DNA from: Candidatus Methylomirabilis sp.
Lineage (GTDB): Bacteria; Methylomirabilota; Methylomirabilia; Methylomirabilales; CSP1-5
Length of the DNA stretch: 54,885 nt
Assembly (NCBI GenBank): GCA_012974305.1
Contig: JAAXQN010000202.1
Span: forward strand, 1 to 54,885
Direction of reading: 5' to 3'
Each line of letters opens with the position of its first letter. The stretch's first letter is position 1. Made by a program: the position numbers and the translations under genes. A model generated the notes under the pieces. It was not told the DNA's origin. It saw nothing but the letters and a program-made list of their open reading frames with translations, and ran no database searches. Shown here in pieces: positions 5,829 to 40,139 of the stretch.

Positions 5829-6819
5829 TGGCCGGACGCTTTGCCAAGATCTTCTGGCTAAGCTGGTGGATCGCCATGGCGTACAGGGGGCTCCGGTTGT
5901 ACCGGGTAATCACATAGAAGTTGTACAGGCCGATCCAGTATTCGCGCCCCGTCACAGTCTCGAGGGCGATCAGCGTTGCCAAATCGCTGCCCCGGAGATT
6001 GTCCTGCGGGGTGACCCCGTATCGTTCCATGCGCCGCAGGCTGATGCGGGGCTTCAGATCCTGGCTCAGGAACAACTTGTACCTTTCTCCCCTGGTGTGC
6101 GCGCGACTCGCTACGGCCTGCTTACGTCTCCAGCCGTGCGCCTGCAGGTAGTTTGCGACGCTGCCGATGACGTCTGCGATGTTGTGCAAAATGTCACGCC
6201 GACCGTCGCCGTCGAAATCGACCGCAAAGTGCCGGTAGCTGCTCGCGATGAACTGGCCAGGGCCCATGGCGCCCGCGTATGAGCCTTTGATCAAAAGCGG
6301 GTTGAAGCCCTCCTCGCGTGTCAGCAGCAGGTACTCCTCGAGTTCCCGTCGGAAGAAGCGACTGCGCGGCGGATACGCGAAGGCCAGCGTGGTCAGCGAT
6401 TCGAGCACGGGGTGGACTCCCGTGGTTCTACCATAGCGTGTCTCGACGCCGAGAATTGCGGCGATGATCTCTGGCGGTACCCCGTACACCCTCTCGGCAC
6501 GCGTCAGAGTCTCCTTGTGGCTACCCCAGAATCGCACTCCGCCTCGAATGCGGCGTTCGTTCACGAAAAGGGGCCGGTATTCGTACCAGGGTTTGGCCTC
6601 TGCCGGGCTGGAGATTGCCGCGATCACACGGGGCCGGGGCTCGATCTGGCCGAAAAGATGCGCCAGTGCTTCCCGGTCGAAGTCGTGCTTGTCCTCCATC
6701 TCCTCTATGAACGCCCACAGGGCCTCCCGGTTGATATCGGGCTCCGCACGGGCGGGCGACGTGGCACAGGCCGTAGCACAGAGGAGCAAGGCACCAATCG
6801 CACAGAGCGCAATCCGCAT
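5809..6819 (-). CDS. mltB: lytic murein transglycosylase B family
   Basis: 336 aa with a signal peptide and MltB-type motifs (LGVETRYG, GSYAGAMGPGQFIASSY). Confidence 0.85.
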   Translation of the reverse strand: MRIALCAIGALLLCATACATSPARAEPDINREALWAFIEEMEDKHDFDREALAHLFGQIEPRPRVIAAISSPAEAKPWYEYRPLFVNERRIRGGVRFWGSHKETLTRAERVYGVPPEIIAAILGVETRYGRTTGVHPVLESLTTLAFAYPPRSRFFRRELEEYLLLTREEGFNPLLIKGSYAGAMGPGQFIASSYRHFAVDFDGDGRRDILHNIADVIGSVANYLQAHGWRRKQAVASRAHTRGERYKLFLSQDLKPRISLRRMERYGVTPQDNLRGSDLATLIALETVTGREYWIGLYNFYVITRYNRSPLYAMAIHQLSQKILAKRPAIKASTE

Positions 6820-6887
6820 GTCAATTCCTCACTCGTCGCACCTGATAAGGTTTCTGAGCTACCTTTCGATCACGTACAACAGTATAG

Positions 6888-7046
6888 CAAGCGGAGGCAA
6901 AACAGAAAAAAGAAGTAATCCGAAGCGACGAGAAGTCGGACGTGCATGCGAAAGACAGAGATGGCCAGACAGCCTTGATGCAAGCGGCATGGCATGGCCA
7001 CACCGCCATCGTCCAAATACTTAAAGAGGCCGGAGCGCGGGAATAG
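6888..7046 (+). pseudogene. 3' part of the ankyrin-repeat gene (no start codon)
   Basis: An open frame without a start encodes ...DVHAKDRDGQTALMQAAWHGHTAIVQILKEAGARE-stop, which is a terminal ANK repeat. Confidence 0.55.
6937..6990. repeat. 54-nt perfect direct repeat, copy 2
   Basis: Identical to 5692-5745. Confidence 0.95.
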
Positions 7047-7703
7047 CCGACTGATCGACTGCCATGTGCTGCCCCCGCGACGGGCTGCTTGATAATGGCT
7101 TCCACGACATGACCGGGAAGGTCATCTGGAGCGCACCTTAAGTTCTTGTTATCACCGCTTCTACGCACAAGTCCGGTAGATGCTTGTCTCGTAGCTACTT
7201 ACTGCTTTTTATGTCTGGGGCGCTAAGTGCTCGTACCCGCTCGCTCTACCTAACTCCGCATAGCCGCTGTATCTACGCGCTGTTACCCGGTGGTAAGCCA
7301 TACCCGCCAACAGGCCGCTTAATGCTGCGCTTTTTAGCCTGCTCCCGCCGCAATAAAAGTTACTTTCCCGCCAGTGCGACTACTACTTCCTTTTAGGCCA
7401 TCTTGTGACGGCGCGGAAGGTAACGTCCCGTCCGACTGGGTTCCGTCGTCCTTGGCCGGGGGGGTGCTTTGCTCCAGGGTTCAGCGCAATTACACGAGCA
7501 GGCACGAGAGGAGAGGTGAAGTTTCCTATCCCTCATAGCAATCTCACTGTGAGTGAACCTGAGCGAGAAGAGAGACACTGGGTGGGCATCCTGAGAGGAT
7601 AGGCGGGCCGTCCGCGGCCCGTTCTATTGCAGCGGAGTAGTCACTATTTGGACACCGAGCTTATTAGGAGGCGAGGGAAGAGGAGATAAACGTTTGTAAA
7701 GGG

Positions 7704-8596: not shown

Positions 8597-8842
8597 TTAC
8601 CCGACCTGCCGTCGCCTGAGAGGCCGGAGTTTGAAGGTGTTGAGAGAGGCAGAGCAAATGCTGTTGGCGCACCGGTACACGCGGAAAAGGAACCAGTGGG
8701 TCTGCCCGCTCGGAATGAGGTAGCACCCGCAGTGGGGACAGAGACGGTGGTCGGCATAATGCTCTTCAACGTACCGGCGGATCTCGTGGAGACTAGACAT
8801 GACCTCGCCGCTCGGGCTGAGAAAGAGGTACTCGGTAATCAT
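8597..8842 (-). CDS. Cys-rich small hypothetical protein
   Basis: The start is taken at the internal Met preceded by RBS AAGGAAG. Contains CPHCGC and CANSIC. Confidence 0.4.
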   Translation of the reverse strand: MITEYLFLSPSGEVMSSLHEIRRYVEEHYADHRLCPHCGCYLIPSGQTHWFLFRVYRCANSICSASLNTFKLRPLRRRQVG

Positions 8843-14418: not shown

Positions 14419-15723
14419 CTAGATCAAGCCCCACTGCTTGAAGGATGGGGTCGGCAGAAGAATGGTCTGGTCCCGCTCGGGACCCGTGGAGATGAGCGAG
14501 ATGTCAATGCCGAGCATGGTTTCCAAGCGATCCAAAAATGCCCGACACTTTTTCGGGAGTTCCCCAATGGACTGGCGCCCCAGCGTGCTCTCTTGCCATC
14601 CCTCTATCTCCTCATAAAGCGGCTGGCATTCCTGGAGGATGTCGGTCTCGTTGGGAAATCCCTCCAGGGTTTGTCCACGGTACCGATACGCCAGACAAAT
14701 CTGAACCACCGGGAAGGAGTCTAGGACATCCAGCTTCGTGAGTGCCAGAGTGGTTATACCGTTTACCCGGATGGCATATCGGAGGGAGGTTGCGTCGAGC
14801 CACCCGCATCGCCTGGGCCTCCCCGTGGTGGCCCCAAACTCTTCTCCGCGCTTACGCAGTTCCTCGCCGGTACGATCCCCGAGCTCCGTGGGAAATGGAC
14901 CCTCTCCCACCCGCGTCGTATAGGCCTTCATGACACCCAAGACTCCGTCAATCCGGGACGGTCCGACCCCGGTTCCAATGCAGGCGCCTCCAGCTGTTGC
15001 ACTGCTTGAGGTGACATACGGATACGTTCCCAGATCTATATCCAGGAGTGTCCCCTGCGCTCCCTCAAAAAGAATATTCTTGCCCTCTTCAATCATCCCG
15101 TTCAGAACCGCCGAGGCATCTACGAGAAAGGGCTGGACCTCGGCGAAGTGGACCATCTGTTCGTCAAAGATGGTCTCGGGGTCGAGGGTGTGGAGGGCGC
15201 TTTCCTTCGGGGCATGAGCCTTCTTCTCGGACAAGTTGGCGCACAGTCGACCTCGGAAGAGGGCCGGATCGAGGAGATCCCCGATTCGGATTCCCACTCT
15301 GGCCACCTTATCGGAGTACGCCGGACCGATCCCGCGTCCGGTGGTCCCGATGGGTCGGGCGGTGTTTTGCTCCCGTTCCCTGTCCAGAATCTTGTGATAC
15401 GGGAGAACCAGGTGGGCATTTTTTCCGATGAAGAGATGCCCCTCCGGATCCACGGCCAGGCGGCGGAGCTGGTTGAGTTCGTGGGTGAGCCCCGGAAGAT
15501 CGACCACCACCCCGTTTCCTAGGATGCACGTTTTCCCTTTCCGGAGGATTCCGGAGGGAACCAGGTGCAGGACCACCTTCTCCCTCCCCACGACCACCGT
15601 GTGTCCCGCGTTGTTTCCCCCCTGATAGCGGGCCACGGCGTCGAAAGATTCGCTGATGGTGTCAACAATCTTTCCCTTCCCCTCGTCGCCCCACTGGGTG
15701 CCCACCACGATCACGTTGGCCAT
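14419..15723 (-). CDS. purA: adenylosuccinate synthase
   Basis: MANVIVVGTQWGDEGKGK P-loop and full-length similarity. The start is taken at the internal Met. Confidence 0.9.
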   Translation of the reverse strand: MANVIVVGTQWGDEGKGKIVDTISESFDAVARYQGGNNAGHTVVVGREKVVLHLVPSGILRKGKTCILGNGVVVDLPGLTHELNQLRRLAVDPEGHLFIGKNAHLVLPYHKILDREREQNTARPIGTTGRGIGPAYSDKVARVGIRIGDLLDPALFRGRLCANLSEKKAHAPKESALHTLDPETIFDEQMVHFAEVQPFLVDASAVLNGMIEEGKNILFEGAQGTLLDIDLGTYPYVTSSSATAGGACIGTGVGPSRIDGVLGVMKAYTTRVGEGPFPTELGDRTGEELRKRGEEFGATTGRPRRCGWLDATSLRYAIRVNGITTLALTKLDVLDSFPVVQICLAYRYRGQTLEGFPNETDILQECQPLYEEIEGWQESTLGRQSIGELPKKCRAFLDRLETMLGIDISLISTGPERDQTILLPTPSFKQWGLI

Positions 15724-22476: not shown

Positions 22477-22595
22477 CCGATGGCCGATGACGGCTCGACT
22501 GAGCTCGCCGAAGTCCGACGACCGATGACCGGCGACGATTCCGTCCTTTGCGTGAACGGTCTCCCTCTGGACGCTGAACGCTGAGCCCTGAACCC
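22477..22595. repeat. heptamer-periodic array in the pyrK-pyrD spacer
   Basis: In one 7-nt phase: CCGATGG CCGATGA ... TCGCCGA AGTCCGA CGACCGA TGACCGG ... TGGACGC TGAACGC TGAGCCC TGAACCC. Confidence 0.85.
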
Positions 22596-22608
22596 TTTTT
22601 CTTTCCCT

Positions 22609-23490
22609 TCACCAGGCTATCTCCCGGGCGTCGAAGGCCGGCCCATCCTTGCAGCACAATTTATATGATATCGTTGACTGTCGAGCAGCCAGCTGTTCTT
22701 TGACTGACTGCTTCACGGGGATGACGCAGCCCATGCATGCCCCAAAGCCACAAGCCATAGAGGCCTCCAAAGAGACCTGGCAGGGGATTTGAAATCGGTC
22801 GGCGATCTGAGCAACGGCGTGGAGCATCGCGTGCGGACCACAGGCATAGATTATTAACCCTTGTCGGCTGGTCTGTGTCTTGAGATGTGCTTCCAAGAGA
22901 TCCACAACGAGCCCTCGATGGCCGACGCTGCCATCTTCGGTGGCGACATGCACCTTTGCCCTAGCCTTACGAAGATCGGTGAGACAAAGAACATCATCGG
23001 AGGTCTTGCCCCCGACAAAGGCAACTACTTTCCGTCGACCTTTGTCAGATGAGCGCCGGTTGGTTTTCCCTTGCTGTGAACCTCGAAGGGTGAACTGTGA
23101 ACGTGCGAGCATTTCGGCGAGGGCCACCACCGGAGGAACCCCGATGCCTCCGGCGACCAGCAGGGCTGTGGTGAGACTGGGCGGCACGTGATAGCCATTC
23201 CCCAGTGGACCCAGGAGGTCCACCCGATCTCCCGGCTTAAGGCGGGAGAGGGCTCTGGATCCCTTCCCCATCAATTTGTAAAAGATCTCCACCATGTGAC
23301 CGCCTTTTCTGTTGCTCTCGCGTCGGACCCTCAGAATGCTATAGGCCCTTGGCAGAAAGGGGTCGAACAATCCTGAAGGTTTCACCATGACGAACTGTCC
23401 AGGCTGAAAGCTGAGGGATTCTGAGGTAAAGCGCTGGAGGAAATAATCCGGGTGGAACCTTTGGAGGGATTGCACCTCAACTTGTTGCAT
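22609..23490 (-). CDS. pyrK: dihydroorotate dehydrogenase electron-transfer subunit
   Basis: 293 aa with a FAD/NAD-binding fold and a C-terminal Cys cluster (CGFGACMGC). Contains an extra basic loop encoded by a heptamer array. Confidence 0.85.
   Translation of the reverse strand: MQQVEVQSLQRFHPDYFLQRFTSESLSFQPGQFVMVKPSGLFDPFLPRAYSILRVRRESNRKGGHMVEIFYKLMGKGSRALSRLKPGDRVDLLGPLGNGYHVPPSLTTALLVAGGIGVPPVVALAEMLARSQFTLRGSQQGKTNRRSSDKGRRKVVAFVGGKTSDDVLCLTDLRKARAKVHVATEDGSVGHRGLVVDLLEAHLKTQTSRQGLIIYACGPHAMLHAVAQIADRFQIPCQVSLEASMACGFGACMGCVIPVKQSVKEQLAARQSTISYKLCCKDGPAFDAREIAW
23074..23108. repeat. heptamer array inside the pyrK coding sequence
   Basis: CTGTGAA CCTCGAA GGGTGAA CTGTGAA CGTGCGA. It encodes part of ARSQFTLRGSQQGKTNRRSS. 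Confidence 0.7.
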
Positions 23491-26400
23491 GGCCCATCCC
23501 CCCGTTGTACTCCTGCAATGCCTTGACCTGAAGACCCTCCGTCTTGAGGGCTCGAATCCCCTCCACCGCCGCGTTGGCCGCTGCCATGGTCGTAAAGCAT
23601 GGGATCCCCTGGGTGATGGCAGTGCGGCGGATGGAGTACGAGTCGAGGCGCGAGGCCCGCCCCTCAGGGGTGTTCACCACCAAGACGACCTCGCCATTCT
23701 TCATCCGGTCCACGATGTGGGGTCGAACCCCCTCGGTCACTTTGTACACGCGCTCGGCGGGGATCCCCGCATCCTGAAGGCAGCGGGCTGTGCCGGTGGT
23801 GGCCAGGATGTGAAAGCCGAGTTCGGCAAACGCCTGGCCGAGTGGGGGAAGGTGGGGTTTGTCCGGATCCCGAACGCTCAAGAAGACTGTTCCCTCGAGT
23901 GGCAGCATCCCGCTCGCCGCGATCTGGGACTTTGCAAAGGCGCGACCAAAGTCCCGATCGATCCCCATGACCTCGCCCGTTGACTTCATCTCTGGACCTA
24001 GAATGGCATCGACCCCGGGAAACTTGACGAAGGGCAACACTGCTTCCTTCACCGCCACGTGGTGCACGGCCGGTTCCCGGGTCAGCCCCAGCTCCTCTAA
24101 GGTCATGCCAGCCATCACTTTGGTGGCGAGCTTGGCCAGGGGAACCCCCGTCGCCTTGCTGACGAAGGGGACCGTCCGGGAGGCCCGGGGGTTCACCTCG
24201 AGGACATAGACCGTGGAGTTCTTGACAGCGAACTGGACATTGATGAGTCCTACTACCTGTAGGTCCAGGGCTAACGCGGTCGTCTGCTCACGGATCTCGT
24301 CTAGAATCTTGTCGGGCACCGACCGCGGCGGAAGCGAGCAGGCGGAGTCTCCCGAGTGAATGCCCGCCTCTTCGATGTGCTCCATAATTCCGCCGATAAC
24401 GACCCGCCTCCCGTCCGCGATGGCATCGACGTCCATCTCGATTGCATCTTCCAGGAACTTGTCAATCAGGACGGGATGCTCCGGAGAGGCCTGGACGGCC
24501 CGCTCCATGTAATCGAAAAGACTTGCATCGTCATAGACGATATCCATGGCCCGCCCCCCGAGGACATACGAAGGGCGAACTAGGACAGGATAGCCGACCC
24601 GTTTCGCAATCCGAGTTGCCTCGGTGACCGAGATGGCCGTCCCGCTGAGGGCCTGGCTGAGCCACGATGACACCCTCTGGCTGTTCCCGGTCTAGGATGT
24701 TCATGACATCCTCGAAGGTCAGGGGCTCGAAGTAGAGCTTGTCGGAGGTATCGTAGTCGGTGGAAACCGTTTCGGGGTTGCAGTTGACCATGATGGCCTC
24801 GTAACCAAGCTCCTTCAATGCAAAGGCGGCGTGGACGCAGCAGTAATCGAATTCGATTCCCTGGCCGATCCGGTTGGGGCCGGACCCCAGGATCACGATC
24901 TTCTTCCGAGTCGTCGGGTTGGCTTCGCATTCCCGCTCGTAGGTCGAATAGAGGTAGGGGGTAAAGGCCTCGAATTCGGCGGCGCAGGTGTCCACCATCT
25001 TGAAGGTAGCCTGGATCCCAAGCTTTCGCCGCGCGTCCCGGATGGTAAGTTCATCAGAGCCCGTCAGTTGGGCCAACCTGCGGTCGGCGAAACCCATTTC
25101 CTTGGCGGTCCGCAACTTCTGGGGGGTCAGGAGGCGGAGAAGGCTCTTAGACCGCTCGTGTGCGAGCTCTTCCTCCAACTCGACGATCTCCCGAATATTC
25201 TCCAGAAACCAGGGGTCAATTTGGGTCAGTTCGTAGATCTCTTGAACATTCATGAGCTGGCGGAAGGCGTCCGCAACGTAAAAGAGCCGCTCCCAGTTGG
25301 GTATGCGGAGTCGCTCTCGGATGAGCTCACGCCAAGACTCGCCGTTCATCTCCGTGGCCCTGGAACCGTAACCCGTGATACGGCTCGTCAGGCCGTAGAC
25401 GTCAATCTCCAAAGCACGGATGGCCTTCTGCAGTGCCTCCTTGAAAGTTCGGCCGATGGCCATCACTTCGCCCACCGACTTCATCTGGGTGGTCAGTGTT
25501 TCATCCGACCCCGGGAATTTCTCGAAGGCAAAACGAGGGATCTTCACCACGCAATAATCCAGCGTGGGCTCGAAGGAAGCGGGGGTCGACTGCGTGATGT
25601 CGTTTTTGATCTCATCCAGGGTGTAGCCGACCGAGAGGAGGGCGGCAATCTTGGCAATCGGGAATCCGGTCGCCTTGCTGGCGAGAGCGGAAGAGCGCGA
25701 AACCCTGGGATTCATCTCGATCACGACCAGTCGGCCATCGGCGGGGTCCACGGCGAACTGGATGTTGGATCCACCGGTCTCTACCCCGATCTCCCGGATG
25801 ATGGCGATCGCGGCGTCCCGCATGATCTGGTATTCCTTGTCGGTGAGGGTCTGAACGGGCGCGACGGTGATGGAATCCCCCGTATGGATTCCCATCGCGT
25901 CCATATTCTCGATGGAGCAGACGATGACCACGTTATCGTTTCTGTCCCGCATCACCTCGAGTTCGAACTCTTTCCACCCAATGACCGAGGCCTCAATCAG
26001 GACCTGGTGGACTGGGCTCGTGTTTAAACCCCACTGGACATACTCTTGGAATTCTTTTCGGTTGTACGCGATGCTGCCGCCGGTCCCGCCCAGGGTGAAC
26101 GAGGGGCGGATGATGGCAGGAAAGTCGACCCGTTCAATGATCGCATCTGCCTCCTCAATCGACTTGGCATACCCGCTTTCCGGAACCTCGAGGCCGATCC
26201 TGGTCATGGCCTCTCTGAACAGGTCTCGGTCCTCGGCCTTCTTGATGGTTTCGAGCGTCGCCCCGATCAGCTGCACTTGATGCTTGTCGAGGATACCGCT
26301 TTCAGCCAAGGCCACGGCGAGGTTGAGCCCCGTCTGCCCACCAAGGGTTGGGAGGAGGGCATCCGGGCGCTCCCGCTCGATGACCTTCTCCAAGATTTCC

Positions 26401-26612
26401 ACGGTCAGCGGTTCGACATAGGTCCGGTGGGCCATCTCTGGGTCGGTCATGATGGTGGCGGGATTCGAGTTGACCAGGACGATCTCGAAGCCTTCCTGGC
26501 GCAGAACCTTGCAGGCCTGCGTCCCGGAGTAGTCAAACTCACAGGCCTGGCCGATGATGATTGGTCCGGAACCGATAATCAGAATCTTTTGAATGTCCGT
26601 ACGCTTAGGCAT
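23477..26612 (-). pseudogene. carB: carbamoyl-phosphate synthase large subunit, disrupted by an internal loss plus frameshift near 24650-24665
   Basis: ORF 24531-26612 matches CarB from the N-terminus to ...[11 protein letters not shown], then goes out of frame. ORF 23477-24673 resumes in another frame at ...[36 protein letters not shown] and runs to the MGS-like C-terminus. Confidence 0.8.
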
Positions 26613-26620
26613 GTCCTAAC

Positions 26621-26697
26621 TGCCGTTAGCAGTCAGCAGTCAGCAATCAGCAGTAGGCCGAAATTCAAAAGCCGGCAGCCGATAGCTGGCAGCGGAC
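26621..26697. repeat. direct heptamer array filling the carA-carB spacer
   Basis: TGCCGTT AGCAGTC AGCAGTC AGCAATC AGCAGTA GGCCGAA ATTCAAA AGCCGGC AGCCGAT AGCTGGC AGCGGAC. AGC recurs every 7 nt in 8 of the 11 units. Confidence 0.9.
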
Positions 26698-26703
26698 GAC
26701 AAG

Positions 26704-27969
26704 TTAAGTGGCGATACTTCCTTGCTGGCGGATCCGGGTGCCCTCGACGTGGAGAAGCTCCACCGGCTCGCGCGTACACCGGTTTCGCTCCATCAAAGCC
26801 ACAAAGCGGTCAAAGAGGTAGCGCGAGTCGTGCGGGCCCGGCGAGGCCTCGGGATGGTACTGAACCGAAAAGACGGGTAGGCGAAGGTGCCGCATCCCTT
26901 CGACGGTCCCATCATTCAAATTCACGTGAGTCAGTTCCACCTCCCCACTCGGGATTGAGTCGATGTCGACGGCAAACCCGTGGTTTTGAGTCGTGACCTC
27001 AACCTTCCCGGTGTGAAGCTCCTTGACCGGGTGGTTGGCCCCGTGATGGCCAAATTTGAGTTTATATGTACGGCCACCCAGGGCGAGGCCTAGAATCTGG
27101 TGTCCGAGACAGATCCCGAAGATCGGTCTTTTCCCAAGGAGCTGCCGGGTGGTTTCGACCAGGTGCATAACTCCCTCAGGGTCCCCAGGCCCATTGCTGA
27201 TGAAGATGCCGTCCGGATCCAAGGCCAGAATCTCGTTGGCGGTGGTTGTAGCTGGGACAACCACCACATCGCAACCGGTGCTCACCAGCTGCCGGAGGAT
27301 GTTGTACTTGATCCCACAGTCGATGGCTACCACCTGGAACCGTTGACCGACAACCGATGTCCGTTCACCGAACAGATCTAACTGCACGCGCTTATGCTCC
27401 CGGTCGTCGGTCGTCGGTACGCGGTCATCGCTGTAACCGTGTCCCCATCGCCACTCCCCCTGCCACCATTGGAAGGACTCGCTGCACGTCACTTCCTTCA
27501 CCAGATCACGGCCGATAAGACCCGGAGACGACCGGGCCTTCTCGACAAGGCTGTGCGGACTCGAGTCGACCGTGGAGATGACGCCTTCCATCGCACCCTG
27601 GTCTCGGATGTGTTTGGTGAGCGCACGCGTATCAATCCCCTGGATCCCCACGATTCCCCATTCTTGCAGATAGGCCTCGAGCGTCTTGGACTTTCGCCAA
27701 TTGCTCGGATAGGGGGAGCCTTCCTTCACGATAAAGCCTTCCACAAAGGGGCGTTGGGACTCGATGTCCTCGGGATTGATCCCGTAATTACCGATGAGGG
27801 GGTAAGTCATGCAGACGATCTGCCCCTTGTACGAGGGATCGGTGAGGATCTCTTGATAGCCGGTCATGGCTGTATTGAAGACTACCTCGCCGACGCATTC
27901 GCCTTCGGCACCGAAGGCACGCCCCTCAAAGACGGTTCCGTCTGCTAAGGCCAGGATGGCGGACTTCAT
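26704..27969 (-). CDS. carA: carbamoyl-phosphate synthase small (glutaminase) subunit
   Basis: [20 protein letters not shown] start, overlapping the pyrC stop as ATGA. Catalytic GICLGHQ is present. The interdomain linker is extended. Confidence 0.9.
27341..27435. repeat. complete two-arm heptamer element embedded in frame in carA
   Basis: CGTTGAC CGACAAC CGATGTC CGTTCAC CGAACAG, then 25 nt, then CGGTCGT CGGTCGT CGGTACG CGGTCAT CGCTGTA. Translated as [32 protein letters not shown]. Confidence 0.85.
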
Positions 27970-29312
27970 GACGTCTCCCAAACCACCTGACCGGCCACGA
28001 TGGTCATCACAGCCCTCCCCTTGAGCTTCCATCCGATGAAGGGAGAGTTTTTACTCTTCGATTGCCAGTCATTCTCCTCAACGATCCATTCCTGATCCGG
28101 ATCGAGGATGGTGATATCTGCATCCGCGCCTGGCACCAGCGTTCCCTTGTGCTTGAGCTTCAGGATCCGGGCCGGATTGGTGGTCAACCGTTCTATGATC
28201 ATGGGGAGGGCGAGGAGACGGGTGTGATAGAACTCGGTGAGGATGAGGCCGAGAGCGGTCTCGAGCCCAATGATGCCGAAGGGGGCGTAATCGTACTCCA
28301 TCTCCTTCTCGAAGCTGGCATGGGGGGCATGATCGGTGGCGATGATCTCGATGGTCCCATCGATGAGCGCCTCCCGGAGTGCCGTGACATCCTCGGCCGA
28401 GCGGAGGGGAGGATTCATCTTGGTATTGGTGCTAAAACCCCGGACTGCTTCGTCAGTGAGGATCAAGTGGTGAGGTGTCGCCTCGCCGCTCACCTGTACA
28501 CCCCGGGCCCTCGCCTCCCGGATCAGACAGATTGACTCCGTCGTGCTTACATGACAGACGTGGAGGCGGGCCCCTGTGTACTCACTCAACAGGATGTCTC
28601 GCCCCACCATCACTGCCTCCGCGGCAGAGGGGATTCCCTTGAGCCCCAATTTGGTACTCACGCGCCCCTCGTGCATTACCCCCCCTTCGGAGAGCGTGAG
28701 ATCTTCACAGTGGGGGATCACCGTGATGTCGAACATGGTGGCGTACTCCATCGCCCGCCGCATGAGTTCGGCATTCATCACCGGCTTACCGTCATCGGAG
28801 AGCCCGACGCACCCCGCGGCCGCAAGGTCCCCGATATCCGCCAGCTGTTCGCCGTGGTGGCCCCTCGAGATGCATCCGATGGGGAAGACGTTCACGCGTC
28901 CCACCTTCTTGGCCTGCTCTAAGATGTACTCGGTGACCGATGCAGTGTCGTTCACCGGATCGGTATTCGGCATGCAACAGATAGAGGTGAACCCTCCCCG
29001 TGCCGCGGCCGCGGTTCCGGAGGCAATGGTTTCCTCATCCTCTCGTCCCGGTTCCCGGAGATGCACGTGCATGTCAATAAGACCAGGCACCACGATCTTG
29101 CCGGTCGCATCGATAACTCGGATTTCCGTTTGCCCGTCTCGGCCTGCGGGTTTTTTGTTCTTTCCTGGGCCTCCGGACCCTGAACCCTGAACCCGCTTGT
29201 CCACCTGAAGGATCTGCCCGTCCTCGACGAGAATATCAAGCGTGGCGTCGACCCCGCTGGCCGGATCAATCACTCGCCCACCTGTAATTAAGAGTCGCAT
29301 CTCATACTCCAC
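27966..29312 (-). CDS. pyrC: dihydroorotase
   Basis: 448 aa with [14 protein letters not shown]. The start could be Met5 (29300). Carries an extra Gly/Lys-rich N-terminal loop. Confidence 0.9.
29174..29194. repeat. heptamer triplet inside the pyrC coding sequence
   Basis: CGGACCC TGAACCC TGAACCC encodes the QGSGSG part of the [22 protein letters not shown] loop. Confidence 0.65.
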
Positions 29313-29316
29313 TAGC

Positions 29317-29452
29317 CGTTCACCGTAAACCGTTGACCGATGACCGTAAAGCGATGCTTGCTACTATCGATGATCGAGTGTCCATGTCCGGTGACCTTAA
29401 GAGACCCGAAAACGTGTTCTTCTTCGGTAGTCGGTCATCGGACATCGGTCAA
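29317..29452. repeat. two-arm heptamer element in the pyrB-pyrC spacer
   Basis: CGTTCAC CGTAAAC CGTTGAC CGATGAC CGTAAAG CGATGCT ... CGGTAGT CGGTCAT CGGACAT CGGTCAA. The arms are imperfect inverse complements. Confidence 0.9.
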
Positions 29453-30389: not shown

Positions 30390-30398
30390 CTTATTCTC

Positions 30399-31188
<790 letters not shown>

Positions 31189-31195
31189 CTACTAT

Positions 31196-36234: not shown

Positions 36235-37878
36235 GTGGCGATTCGCGGGGAGCGGATTGTCGCTTTGGGCCTCGACCTCAGCCATCTCATTGGTCCCGAG
36301 ACCAAAATTGTCGAGGCGGCAGGTAAGTATCTCACCCCGGGTCTGATTGATGGACACACCCACCTAGATAACATCCAAAGCCTGCATGAGTTCCTGTATG
36401 AGGCCCTGCCAAGGGGACTCACCACTGTCATTACAGAGTTAGTCCACGTGGCAAATGTAGGAGGGGCCGCAGCCTTCCGGACCTTCCTGGCGGGTCTCGA
36501 GGACCTCCCGATTCTGGTTTACACCACCGCTCCTTCTATCTCCCTTCTCTGCTCTGACCGGGGGGATGGCCGGTCGGCCATTTCATCTGACGAAGTGGCA
36601 GACCTGCTGGAGCACCCTCTCGTGCTGGGGCTCGGGGAGGTCTACTGGCATCTCGCACTGCAGGCCCCGCCCGACCTCTTGTCCTTGATCGATAAGGCCC
36701 GTCGTCTGCGAAAGCAGGTGGAGGGGCACGCCGCCGGGGCCCGCGGGTGGAAGCTCCAGCAGTACATGGGCCTCGGAATCGGCTCCTGCCACGAGTCAAT
36801 CACACCAGAGGAGGTGATCGACCGGCTTCGCCTGGGGGTACATACAATGGTTCGAGAGGGTTCGGTGCGGCAGGACCTAGGCGTCCTGAAGGAAGTGGTC
36901 TCGTCCGGGGTGGATCTCCGGCGTCTGATCCTGGTAACCGATACTGTCTGGCCCGATGACCTCTTGCGCCGGGGCGTCATGGACCATGCGGTCCGCCGTG
37001 CCATCGAGCTCGGTCTCGATCGCGTTGCGGCAGTCCGGGCGGCCAGCCTCTCCTGTGCCGAGCACTTCGGTCTCGACCACCTGGTGGGAGGCCTTGGTCC
37101 GGGCAAGTATGCCAACCTCTTGGTAGTTCCGGATCTTACGCGGATGGAACCCGAGGTGGTAATTAGTAAGGGTAGCGTGGTGGCGCAGGACGGAAGATGT
37201 CTCGTAAGGGTCAAGGGAAATTCTCAAATCCGGCGGGTTCTCCCCGCGCCTACGTTGCCGCACCCTCTCACGCCGGGGGATCTCAAAGTCCCTGCGGACC
37301 GCTTAGGTGGGTGGACCCAGGTGAGGGTTCTAGGCATTGCGGGACCCATTCTGACACGGGAACTCACACTGTCACTGCCGGTCGAGGGGGGAGAGGTGAT
37401 CATGGAGCCTCAAGCGGATGTTCTGAAGGCTGCCGCCTTTGACCGGAGAGGTCTTGGGCAGAGGACGGTCGGGTTCGTCAAAGGATTTGGCCTGCGGCAA
37501 GGGGCGGTTGCCTCGAGCCTTTCCTACGACGTGAGCAATCTAGTGGCCGTCGGGGCCCGGGATGCAGATATCGCCCGAGTTCTGAACCGATTGGTAGAGA
37601 TCGGCGGCGGCTTTGTCGTGGTGGTCGATGGGGAAGTCGTAGAGGAGCTCCCCATGCCGATCGGGGGGATCATTAGCGAAGAGTCGGTCCCGAAATTGGC
37701 CGAGAAGCTCGATCGAATAAAGCGGGTGGTCAAAGACCTGGGCTCACTGCTTCAGGATCCCCTCCTCACCCTCCAGGCCCTTACCTTCACCGCGATTCCG
37801 GCCTTGAGGCTCAGGGAGCGCGGGCTTGTCCAGGTCAAAACGGGTCAGATAGTCCCACTGCTGATAGAGACTTCCTAA
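36235..37878 (+). CDS. ade: adenine deaminase (amidohydrolase family); the true start is probably upstream of the first canonical start
   Basis: Carries PGLIDGHTHLD. The in-frame upstream codons ADLVVRGGTLLNVYTGELLEGWG look like native N-terminus, but no ATG/GTG/TTG lies between the stop at 36106 and 36235. Confidence 0.8.
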   Translation: MAIRGERIVALGLDLSHLIGPETKIVEAAGKYLTPGLIDGHTHLDNIQSLHEFLYEALPRGLTTVITELVHVANVGGAAAFRTFLAGLEDLPILVYTTAPSISLLCSDRGDGRSAISSDEVADLLEHPLVLGLGEVYWHLALQAPPDLLSLIDKARRLRKQVEGHAAGARGWKLQQYMGLGIGSCHESITPEEVIDRLRLGVHTMVREGSVRQDLGVLKEVVSSGVDLRRLILVTDTVWPDDLLRRGVMDHAVRRAIELGLDRVAAVRAASLSCAEHFGLDHLVGGLGPGKYANLLVVPDLTRMEPEVVISKGSVVAQDGRCLVRVKGNSQIRRVLPAPTLPHPLTPGDLKVPADRLGGWTQVRVLGIAGPILTRELTLSLPVEGGEVIMEPQADVLKAAAFDRRGLGQRTVGFVKGFGLRQGAVASSLSYDVSNLVAVGARDADIARVLNRLVEIGGGFVVVVDGEVVEELPMPIGGIISEESVPKLAEKLDRIKRVVKDLGSLLQDPLLTLQALTFTAIPALRLRERGLVQVKTGQIVPLLIETS

Positions 37879-37907
37879 CCATCCCTAGTGCCGCACCAAC
37901 TAGCGAC

Positions 37908-37988
37908 CGATGCCCGTTGACCGTTATCCGATGACCGTAAGGGACCAAGGGGTCCTTTTTCGGTCGTCGGTCGTCGGTCCACAGTCAG
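37908..37988. repeat. two-arm heptamer element enclosing a terminator hairpin
   Basis: CGATGCC CGTTGAC CGTTATC CGATGAC CGTAAGG, then GGGACC-AAGG-GGTCC-TTTTT, then CGGTCGT CGGTCGT CGGTCCA CAGTCAG. Confidence 0.85.
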
Positions 37989-38986: not shown

Positions 38987-39265
38987 GGAGTTATGAAGCT
39001 GCGCCGGCCCGTGAAGGCAGCCTGTGTCGGCGGAAAATTCCATGGGTAGGCAGATCGGGAAATTCTGGTTACGCGCGGTGCCTTAAGATAGGTGATCAGA
39101 GCGGCCACCCCCGCCTTCGCTTTGCTTCGGCGGCGGGGCCCGGCCGAACGCAAATCAGTTTCCGCCTTCCTCGGCCTTGCTCCCCTCGCCCGTGCAGTGT
39201 TGGAGGAATCAGTAAAGATTTCCTTACAGTTGTGCATGGCGGGTTTCTAGTAAGAGTGCGTCTTT

Positions 39266-39293
39266 CCGTGAACCGTGAACCCTGAACCGTGAA
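39266..39293. repeat. tandem heptamer array abutting an RBS
   Basis: CCGTGAA CCGTGAA CCCTGAA CCGTGAA, followed directly by CCAGGAGCGGAGATG. Confidence 0.9.
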
Positions 39294-39305
39294 CCAGGAG
39301 CGGAG

Positions 39306-40139
39306 ATGGCAGAGATTATTGAGGTGGGGCATAGTCCGGATCCGGACGATGCCTTCATGTTTTATGCGCTCACGGCAGGGAAGCTCGAGACAGGCGACCT
39401 GGAGTTCCGCCATGTCCTGCAGGATATCGAGACCCTGAACCGCTGGGCAATGGAGGGGAAACTCCCCGTGACCGCCATCTCCCTTCACGCTTACGCCTAT
39501 GTGGCTGACAAATATGCCCTGCTGCCTCACGGTGCGAGCATGGGAAGGAAGTACGGGCCGATTGTGGTGACACGAAAGCTGCTCGGCTTCGATGACCTCC
39601 GCCGTGAAACGATTGCGATCCCTGGAACGTTGACCACCGCCTTCCTCACCCTGCGGGTCTGCCTGGGGGAGTTTCCGTATGCGGTTGTCCCCTTCGAACA
39701 GATCCTTGAAGCGGTGGCCGAAGGACGATACGGTGCAGGAGTGATCATTCATGAGGGGCAACTGACATATCAGGATCATGGGCTCGTAAAAAGCTTGGAC
39801 CTGGGAGTCTGGTGGCACGACACAACGGGGCTCCCGCTACCACTTGGGGTCAACGCCGTCCGGCGGGATCTGGGAGAGGATAGAATGCGACAAATCGCTG
39901 GCCTCCTCGAGGCGAGCATCCATTATGCACTCGAGCATCGGCAAGAGGCGCTGGGGTACGCGATGGGTTTCGCCCGTGGGATGGACCGGTCTTCTACAGA
40001 CACCTTCGTAGGGATGTATGTGAATGATCTGACCCTGGCCTACGGGCAGGAGGGCCGGCGCGCAGCGGAAACGTTGCTCGAATGGGGGTTCAAAGAGGGG
40101 ATCTTACCCCGTCAGGTTGCAGTCCGCTTTGTAGAGTAG
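39306..40139 (+). CDS. MqnA/MqnD-family (futalosine-pathway menaquinone biosynthesis) protein
   Basis: 277 aa beginning GHSPDPDDAFMFYAL, with a periplasmic-binding-protein-like fold pattern. Confidence 0.65.
   Translation: MAEIIEVGHSPDPDDAFMFYALTAGKLETGDLEFRHVLQDIETLNRWAMEGKLPVTAISLHAYAYVADKYALLPHGASMGRKYGPIVVTRKLLGFDDLRRETIAIPGTLTTAFLTLRVCLGEFPYAVVPFEQILEAVAEGRYGAGVIIHEGQLTYQDHGLVKSLDLGVWWHDTTGLPLPLGVNAVRRDLGEDRMRQIAGLLEASIHYALEHRQEALGYAMGFARGMDRSSTDTFVGMYVNDLTLAYGQEGRRAAETLLEWGFKEGILPRQVAVRFVE

Follow-up and report, generated by a model that had tools for sequence, protein, structure and literature searches.

How can a repeat built of 7-nt units, a step that is not a multiple of three, persist in the reading frame of an essential gene? 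This question is raised by carA, the gene for the small subunit of carbamoyl-phosphate synthase, in a contig of Candidatus Methylomirabilis sp. (JAAXQN010000202.1, positions 1 to 54,885; the whole stretch of 54,885 nt is called the window below). The gene carries an in-frame insert in which two arms of tandem heptamers flank a short loop. What we observed is the anatomy of this insert, its single origin, the conservation of its frame and loop and the co-variation of its arms. We propose, as the probable explanation, that it descends from a single ancient in-frame heptamer hairpin of the short tandemly repeated repetitive (STRR) type, that its loop was domesticated, and that a process acting at the nucleic-acid level kept its arms repetitive and paired.

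A heptamer hairpin lies in frame within carA

The product of the carA open reading frame (ORF; 26704-27969, minus strand) is 421 aa long, counted from MKSAIL. According to gene calls in relatives, the gene belongs to a pyrR-pyrB-pyrC-carA-carB-pyrK-pyrD operon, and its homologues, which are named Ca. Methylomirabilis or NC10, carry the PF00988 and PF00117 domains. A preliminary description of this DNA had placed a complete two-arm element with a 25-nt loop, translated in frame, at 27341-27435. The site was correct, but the true block is one base longer, spanning 27340-27435 on the minus strand (96 nt, 32 codons); the 32-codon translation and the length of the loop agree with that description.

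The block is built of five CCGNNNN units, the 25-nt loop, and four and a half complementary NCGGNNN units. The coding strand opens at 27435 with a TAC codon (Y) plus the single base A, followed by arm 1 at 27397-27431 (GCGATGA, CCGCGTA, CCGACGA, CCGACGA, CCGGGAG), whose five units encode 12 residues and within which Tandem Repeats Finder reported a period-7 array at 27401-27430. The loop, CATAAGCGCGTGCAGTTAGATCTGT, was delimited by sequence and fold at 27372-27396. Arm 2 at 27340-27371 (TCGGTGA, ACGGACA, TCGGTTG, TCGGTCA, ACGG) pairs with arm 1 in folds, and reads CCGTTGA, CCGACAA, CCGATGT, CCGTTCA, CCGAACA on the plus strand. The codons CAG TTA GAT CTG TTC at 27370-27384 encode QLDLF, which is conserved as protein clade-wide. 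All of these parts lie on the minus strand. The segment 27340-27435 folds into a long interrupted hairpin, with -41.1 kcal/mol (z -2.9) for the sense RNA and -36.4 kcal/mol (z -2.9) for the antisense RNA.

We then compared the spacing of CCG and CGG triplets in the window with composition-matched shuffles. Runs of at least four triplets at exact 7-nt spacing were found five times for CCG and twice for CGG, versus 0.00 each in the shuffles, and no run was present in the window at 5-, 6-, 8- or 9-nt spacing. One of the CCG runs is carA arm 2 (27340-27370, five units) and one of the CGG runs is carA arm 1 (27401-27424 on the plus strand). A stricter criterion of unit identity gave seven period-7 arrays versus 0.25 in shuffles, with all other periods at baseline. 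We confirmed that the two-arm heptamer element within carA is real.

The insert is fixed in the NC10 CarA clade

The carA loci of relatives were collected by exact-protein look-up and by a metagenome scan keyed on the clade-specific peptide SPGLIGRDL, giving 29 distinct long-linker (NC10-type) CarA sequences. The nearest CarA proteins, at 99% to 68% identity, come from metagenomes and metagenome-assembled genomes (MAGs) named Candidatus Methylomirabilis or candidate division NC10. A neighbour-joining tree was built from 369 alignment columns without the linker and 137 distinct CarA sequences; its outgroup set consists of the matches listed in a genome-contig scan with a full CarA alignment, among which close relatives are few. 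In this tree, all 29 sequences with the loop peptide QLxLF form one clade that contains nothing else. Beside it stands a sister group made up of L017, L138 and the Rokubacteria-type L002 and L004, in which the linker spans 6 residues (GY-REPAAA-RFKVVA); the linker of the window's CarA is 24 residues longer. Within the clade the linker measures 28-32 residues, apart from four members with 46-57, and a nested insertion was identified in three of these four; outside it, all but three linkers measure 1-18 residues.

E. coli CarA (382 aa; PDB 1cs0 and others) aligned full-length with an E value of 1e-116, and the insert coincides exactly with a gap of about 21 residues in the E. coli sequence. This bears out the earlier statements that the element sits in the linker between the N-terminal and glutaminase domains, and that this linker is roughly 20 residues shorter in the E. 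coli enzyme. A search for close relatives without the insert had also been suggested; none of the 29 sequences, down to 67-70% protein identity, lacks it. Because the insert is fixed across the whole NC10 CarA clade, it is neither recent nor lineage-specific. The tree and the linker lengths show a single origin, with a net gain of about 24 codons, and the insert is as old as the clade.

The loop peptide is invariant while its codons vary

The Q, L, L and F residues of the loop are invariant in 29/29 sequences, and the third position varies (D, N, S, P or G). At the codon level, Q is encoded by CAG in 12 and CAA in 17 sequences, each L by five different codons, and F by TTC in 19 and TTT in 10. 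Among 64 NC10-type homologous proteins, Y179, Q196, L197, L199 and F200 are invariant or nearly so. Since the amino acids are unchanged despite many synonymous codons, the loop peptide appears to be under purifying selection acting at the protein level, and we infer a role for QLxLF in the CarA protein. The preliminary description had called the insert tolerated in a surface linker. It is indeed present and kept in frame, and the range of linker lengths across phyla (1 to 33 residues) suggests tolerance, but a peptide held invariant across 29 sequences despite heavy synonymous change is more than tolerated.

The frame is equally well kept. The ORF is intact in every lineage, insert lengths range from 96 to 108 nt in 3-nt steps, and the carA arms avoid the in-frame TGA and TAA that the intergenic units CCGATGA and CCGTAAA would give, in line with a predicted translation of the insert. 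Its removal from the RNA or the protein is disfavoured because of the signature of purifying selection in the loop; removal as an intein or intron was dismissed, given only 32 codons, no splicing motifs and a centre conserved as protein. In addition, none of 27 intergenic two-arm hairpins in the NC10 loci has a loop able to encode QLxLF, indicating that this peptide was not delivered repeatedly by separate elements.

The arms change their units and keep their period and pairing

The same architecture was found in 29/29 sequences, namely three to five tandem heptamers, a QL(D/N/S/P/G)LF loop, and three to four roughly complementary tandem heptamers. The units themselves differ. Arm 1 and arm 2 are built of CCGACGA and TCGGTCA in the window, L081, L082, L090 and L092, of GGAGTGA and fourfold CCCTCAC in L100/L083, of GTTCAGG and CCTCAAC in L107, L108, L124 and L134, of fourfold AGTTCCA and threefold CCGGAAC in L110-112, of fourfold GGGGCAG and CATCCCC in L113, of GCCGAGA and CTCGGCT in L119, L122 and L001, and of GCGCCAA and ACGCTTC in L126. 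Because the heptamer unit differs by lineage, the peptides encoded by the arms are unrelated between lineages, SSKFQVPSSKSE being one example. A same-length linker encoded by non-repetitive DNA in orthologues, which had been named as the finding that would speak against an inserted repeat, was not encountered; the same-length linkers of the relatives are also repetitive heptamer DNA.

Self-identity at period 7 was 0.53 for arm 1 and 0.64 for arm 2, compared with 0.20-0.32 at other periods. The duplex of each arm 1 with its own arm 2 had a mean of -35.0 kcal/mol versus -23.8 kcal/mol for cross-lineage combinations, and with one representative per unit type the values were -34.6 and -25.1 kcal/mol (permutation p <= 5e-5). 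Moreover, the observed folds were more stable than those obtained when the peptides were recoded synonymously; over 17 lineages the mean z was -1.27, with values from -3 to -4 in four of the 17 and -4.1 as the lowest. As a 7-nt period cannot come from a peptide repeat and the folds outdo the recodings, these results indicate a nucleotide-level signal beyond coding needs. Perfect fourfold units stand in frame in several lineages (CCCTCAC in L100, AGTTCCA in L110, GGGGCAG in L113), suggesting that homogenisation is recent and length-neutral. The idea that the carA unit tracks the other elements of its genome was rejected: one genome carries many units, and in L083/L100 carA uses GGAGTGA/CCCTCAC while the neighbouring elements use GTTCAC.

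Origin and maintenance of the carA insert

In the proposed scheme, the ancestor of the NC10/Methylomirabilis CarA clade would have gained a tandem-heptamer hairpin within its carA frame, in a single event that extended an interdomain linker of 6 residues to about 30. The loop peptide Q-L-x-L-F would have gained a role in the protein, and purifying selection on it would prevent loss of the insert. The arms would encode unconstrained tether residues, and their DNA would stay 7-nt periodic and complementary while the units turn over, possibly through unit-to-unit and arm-to-arm conversion by mis-registered hairpin pairing or template switching; frameshifts and in-frame stops would be purged by selection. 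Since a slip by one unit shifts the frame of an essential gene, homogenisation is expected to be length-neutral or to proceed in 3-nt steps. Expansion by slippage, which the preliminary description had offered, cannot in its simple form account for everything within the gene.

Several points weigh against this scheme. Five of the 17 lineages have little or no fold excess over synonymous recodings, and the hairpin is weak or lost in some (L117, L095, L093 sense), pointing to leaky maintenance. The strand preference is ambiguous, as the carA antisense folds better than the sense in most of the 29 sequences (mean -40.4 versus -35.0). Translation of the insert is predicted from its sequence. The AlphaFold2 (AF2) model, made from a low-diversity alignment of 64 sequences, was poor, with a mean predicted confidence (pLDDT) of 62 and values below 50 for linker residues 169-208; such values are compatible with a flexible loop, in a model that is poor overall. 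The conversion mechanism is a putative one, and wholesale replacement of arms by recombination with other elements is a possible substitute for it. Finally, the origin of the 7-nt step is left unexplained by the proposal.

In the main rival view, selection acts on a cis-acting structure that the hairpin forms within the pyr operon transcript as RNA (or as single-stranded DNA). It could affect mRNA stability or processing, or make translation pause where the two domains meet, and compensatory selection rather than a mutational process would keep the arms complementary. This would account for arms that co-vary across lineages and for folds more stable than the recodings; similar hairpins are found in every intercistronic gap of the pyr operon, and for STRR hairpins an effect on the stability of transcripts or on translational coupling has been proposed (PMC2670836). 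However, selection for pairing leaves the tandem 7-nt periodicity within the arms unexplained, the helices are broken every 7 nt, and the hairpin has decayed in several lineages. The strand preference is inconsistent too, with the antisense better in carA and a mixed picture in the intergenic copies, which have no consistent strand bias (G-U versus A-C asymmetry). Searching with the Rfam 15 covariance models gave no match to any family at the carA element, the sole match in the operon being a PyrR-site-like one upstream of pyrR. We consider a cis-acting structure unlikely on this evidence.

Radically different units between lineages could also mean that the CarA linker is a hot spot which took up different heptamer elements in repeated, independent events in each lineage. 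The linker is indeed a recurrent site of length change, with heptamer arms of its own in L005 and a different palindrome in L031. Against this, the 29 sequences are monophyletic, their inserts are nearly constant in length and all have QLxLF at the centre, and separate elements could not have delivered QLxLF when no other hairpin loop examined encodes it. We regard repeated insertion as improbable.

Still less credible is a recent, organism-specific insertion of a mobile palindromic element of the Rickettsia palindromic element (RPE) type or the miniature inverted-repeat transposable element (MITE) type. In-frame palindromic repeats do invade Rickettsia genes (PMC1166351), and the carA unit type also occurs in the intergenic copies of the window. 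Yet every member of the clade, even at 67-70% protein identity, has the insert at this site, and the copies share no loop or terminal consensus. A 10-nt direct repeat flanking the insert (CTGGAACCGT/CTGTAACCGT) was considered as a target-site duplication and rejected; it reflects similarity of the codons for GY and RF, its two copies, spaced 97 nt apart, are out of register with the frame, and relatives do not conserve it. The earlier suggestion that the repeat family is or was mobile found no transposition evidence, the units being different among copies and no target duplication being conserved.

Lastly, the view that there is no element at all, only chance or a by-product of selection for a low-complexity or charged linker, can be set aside as hardly tenable: interdomain linkers are often of low complexity and AF2 confidence is low here, but 7 nt is no whole number of codons, the DNA architecture persists across lineages whose arm peptides are unrelated, and the period-7, co-variation and recoding statistics exclude chance.

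Heptamer repeats outside carA

Intergenic elements in the window use the units seen in carA (CCGTTGA, CCGATGT, CCGTTCA, TCGGTCA), and three of them have its arm-loop-arm order, in agreement with the earlier claim that the carA element shares the intergenic architecture. The element in the pyrB/pyrC gap (29316-29451) contains a triplet run, folds with z -2.4 and reads CCGTTCA CCGTAAA CCGTTGA CCGATGA CCGTAAA ... TCGGTAG TCGGTCA TCGGACA TCGGTCA. A composite two-arm element with a run lies in the pyrR/pyrB gap (30398-30527; fold z -2.5), and another, also with a run, downstream of the ORF at 36235-37878 (37907-37979; fold z -4.3). The pyrK/pyrD gap (22508-22596) carries the units CCGACGA, CCGATGA and CCGGCGA, followed by CTGAACG units, with a CCG/CGG run at 22508-22531. 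No strand was assigned to these four elements. Single-arm arrays were also seen, one of three to four GCAGTCA units in the carA-carB spacer (26622-26654) and one of four CCGTGAA units (39265-39296) just upstream of an ORF starting at 39306.

On a larger scale, heptamer arrays occur at 0.61 per kb in 361 kb of NC10 loci versus 0.11 per kb in 1.16 Mb of other loci, and period-8 arrays at 0.02 per kb in both alike. Fifty complementary adjacent array pairs were found, mostly between cistrons. Units differ among the elements of one genome and among orthologous intergenic sites of different genomes; in the pyrB/pyrC gap, the unit is CCGAYGA in the window and L090, and GTTCAYG in L093, L099, L100 and L082. 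No loop or terminal consensus was detected among the copies, whose loops are unrelated and 15-77 nt long. By these sequence comparisons the heptamer repeats look unlike a transposing family with a master copy, and they would fit turnover in place.

Other genes of the operon carry in-frame arrays as well. In pyrC (minus strand), a single-arm GTTCAGG array at 29173-29195 encodes VQGSGSG in a variable N-terminal loop of dihydroorotase; it has two to four units in relatives (VQGSGFRVQG) and is absent from more distant NC10 members and outgroups. In pyrK (minus strand), heptamer arrays occupy several variable loops, at 23073-23103 and 22671-22712 in the window and at 15300-15370, 15520-15555 and 15684-15756 in L082. 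A two-arm hairpin lies inside the loop of the C-terminal Fe-S motif of PyrK (CMGCVIPV...YKLCCKDGP), whose length is 6-8 residues in L084/L085, 16 in the window, 25 in L082 and 42 in L083.

Outside NC10, the carA gene of L005, an Omnitrophota-labelled MAG (6001-7215), has linker arms of GGAAGAG-like units and of two GCTTCCC and two GCATCCC units, without QLxLF; L005 is rich in heptamer hairpins (0.83 per kb). The CarA linker of L031, a Poribacteria MAG, contains a different palindrome, and that of L040 a three-unit TCCACTT array. The repeats in the CarA linkers of these other phyla are independent ones. Two-arm heptamer hairpins also stand beside carA in L043, L057, L010, L040 and L011 (for example CGGGAAT with GATTCCC, and GCGGAAT with TCCGAAT). 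As these are MAGs labelled planctomycete, Desulfobacteraceae and Deltaproteobacteria, heptamer hairpins are not confined to NC10 and cyanobacteria.

A small nested element and other features of the operon

A small element, GGCTCGACTG...CTCGCYGAAGT, of 23 to 80 nt, was found placed exactly between heptamer units of differing arrays, at 22492-22514 in the window, 1616-1677 in L087, 5144-5223 in L091, and 8760-8782 and 15514-15563 in L083. It adds 63 nt in frame to carA arm 2 in L087-L089, being absent from the 95%-identical L092, 81 nt in frame to carA arm 1 in L091, and 8 residues within the pyrC array in L083/L100. Its placement gives it the look of a very small, possibly mobile element that targets heptamer arrays. 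The sequence GCTGTCGAGCCGAGGA is common to the loops of the hairpin just upstream of carA in L108 (4469-4559), L110 (4461-4560) and L112 (3051-3132); it resembles the reverse complement of the GGCTCGACTG end of the small element and contains a likely ribosome-binding site.

Three further observations concern the operon itself. The carB gene (minus strand) is split into overlapping ORFs at 24531-26612 and 23477-24673, with a break at 24663/24664 where 137 nt that both L081 and a metagenome contig of 99% identity (L086, 7890-8026) possess are missing from the window; these nucleotides code for the conserved segment QFGGQTPLKLA...AEDRERF, and without them the frame shifts. An error of assembly could account for this, or else a genuine deletion or pseudogene. 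A PyrR-binding-site-like RNA (RF00515) was found at 31085-31191 on the minus strand, immediately upstream of pyrR, with 49.8 bits (E 1e-4), slightly below the gathering score of 54, suggesting a possible PyrR attenuation of the operon. CarA of the Methylomirabilis-genus clade has a C-terminal tail of about 20 residues (26704-26790 in the window), absent or different in deeper NC10 members and E. coli, which makes up the remainder of its length excess over E. coli.

Relation to known repeats

To our knowledge, cyanobacterial heptamer arrays have been known since 1990 without an accepted origin or function; Mazel et al. (1990) reportedly described STRR heptamers there, with other features in common with the elements studied here. 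In the NC10 loci, too, we found 7-nt tandem units, many dispersed and mostly intergenic copies, and inverted arrays that form hairpins. The likeness extends to several unit types per genome, a location mainly between operon genes, and the ability to sit inside a functional gene. The known STRRs are hairpin-capable 7-bp repeats of unknown function between genes such as hupS and hupL (PMC2670836), and the title of Vioque (1997), as cited in PMC2858038, places them inside an RNase P RNA gene. In contrast, the host here is NC10/Methylomirabilis, and the units (CCGNNNA, GTTCAYG and others) are not the STRR1-3 consensus, so that the carA element is STRR-like rather than a strict STRR. It differs further in being a clade-fixed copy in a protein-coding frame, with a loop under apparent protein-level selection and with documented turnover of units at an orthologous site.

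The parallel with RPEs drawn in the preliminary description stands as to the outcome. In R. felis, 85 of 728 RPEs lie within ORFs, and these palindromic repeats, also present in non-coding DNA, preserve the frame, keep the domains and place their peptide between structural units (PMC1166351). However, RPEs are families of 100-150 bp with a shared consensus that spread by insertion, whereas the carA-type heptamers have no consensus beyond a 3-4-nt core every 7 nt and are rewritten in place; nor does the insert vary by presence and absence among close relatives, being absent only outside the clade.

Repetitive extragenic palindromes (REPs) of proteobacteria are single conserved imperfect palindromes, mobilised by RAYT transposases and extragenic by definition. 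The heptamer copies share no conserved palindrome, and REPs are not built of tandem heptamers. The likeness to REPs, REPINs and bacterial interspersed mosaic elements (BIMEs) lies in short hairpin-forming repeats concentrated between operon genes (PMC3116915). Unlike MITEs, the carA element lacks terminal inverted repeats with a target-site duplication. Judged by the features compared, it belongs neither to the REPs or REPINs nor to the MITEs. Small dispersed repeats (SDRs) of Nostoc were reportedly described by Elhai et al. (2008); by that description, it is the nested GGCTCGACTG...CTCGCYGAAGT element, not the heptamer hairpin, that can be set beside them, with no sequence relationship between the two, although Nostoc sequences were not compared. 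In the literature on Methylomirabilis, no paper reporting heptamer or palindromic repeats was found. In our judgement, what is new is that a whole clade has an STRR-like heptamer hairpin fixed within the frame of an essential gene, with a loop that was probably domesticated and with arms that co-vary and turn over.

Implications

More speculatively, and with considerable doubt, one may think of a dedicated, sequence-independent and still active process that writes and homogenises 7-nt units symmetrically on both arms in several phyla (NC10, the cyanobacteria with their STRRs, and some Omnitrophota, Planctomycetes and Deltaproteobacteria), or of a carA hairpin that is a functional pyr-operon RNA, or of both. 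If such a process existed, the carA copy would be its natural reporter: slippage by a whole unit within a coding sequence is lethal, and perfect fourfold arrays that keep the frame would therefore need length-neutral, hairpin-templated conversion.

At carA, an orthologous and datable heptamer copy within an essential gene can be followed through about 30 lineages, and constraint there divides into three layers: the frame is always kept, the loop peptide appears selected, and the arms are free of protein constraint yet periodic and paired. Whether slippage, conversion or selection maintains the repeats thereby becomes testable, as does the question whether they act at the level of RNA or of DNA. 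In practice, gene callers, aligners and assemblers can be led astray by heptamer regions in NC10 genomes. Outside cyanobacteria, STRR-like hairpins are abundant and colonise variable loops of CarA, PyrC and PyrK, and a peptide derived from such a repeat can turn into a fixed part of a housekeeping enzyme.

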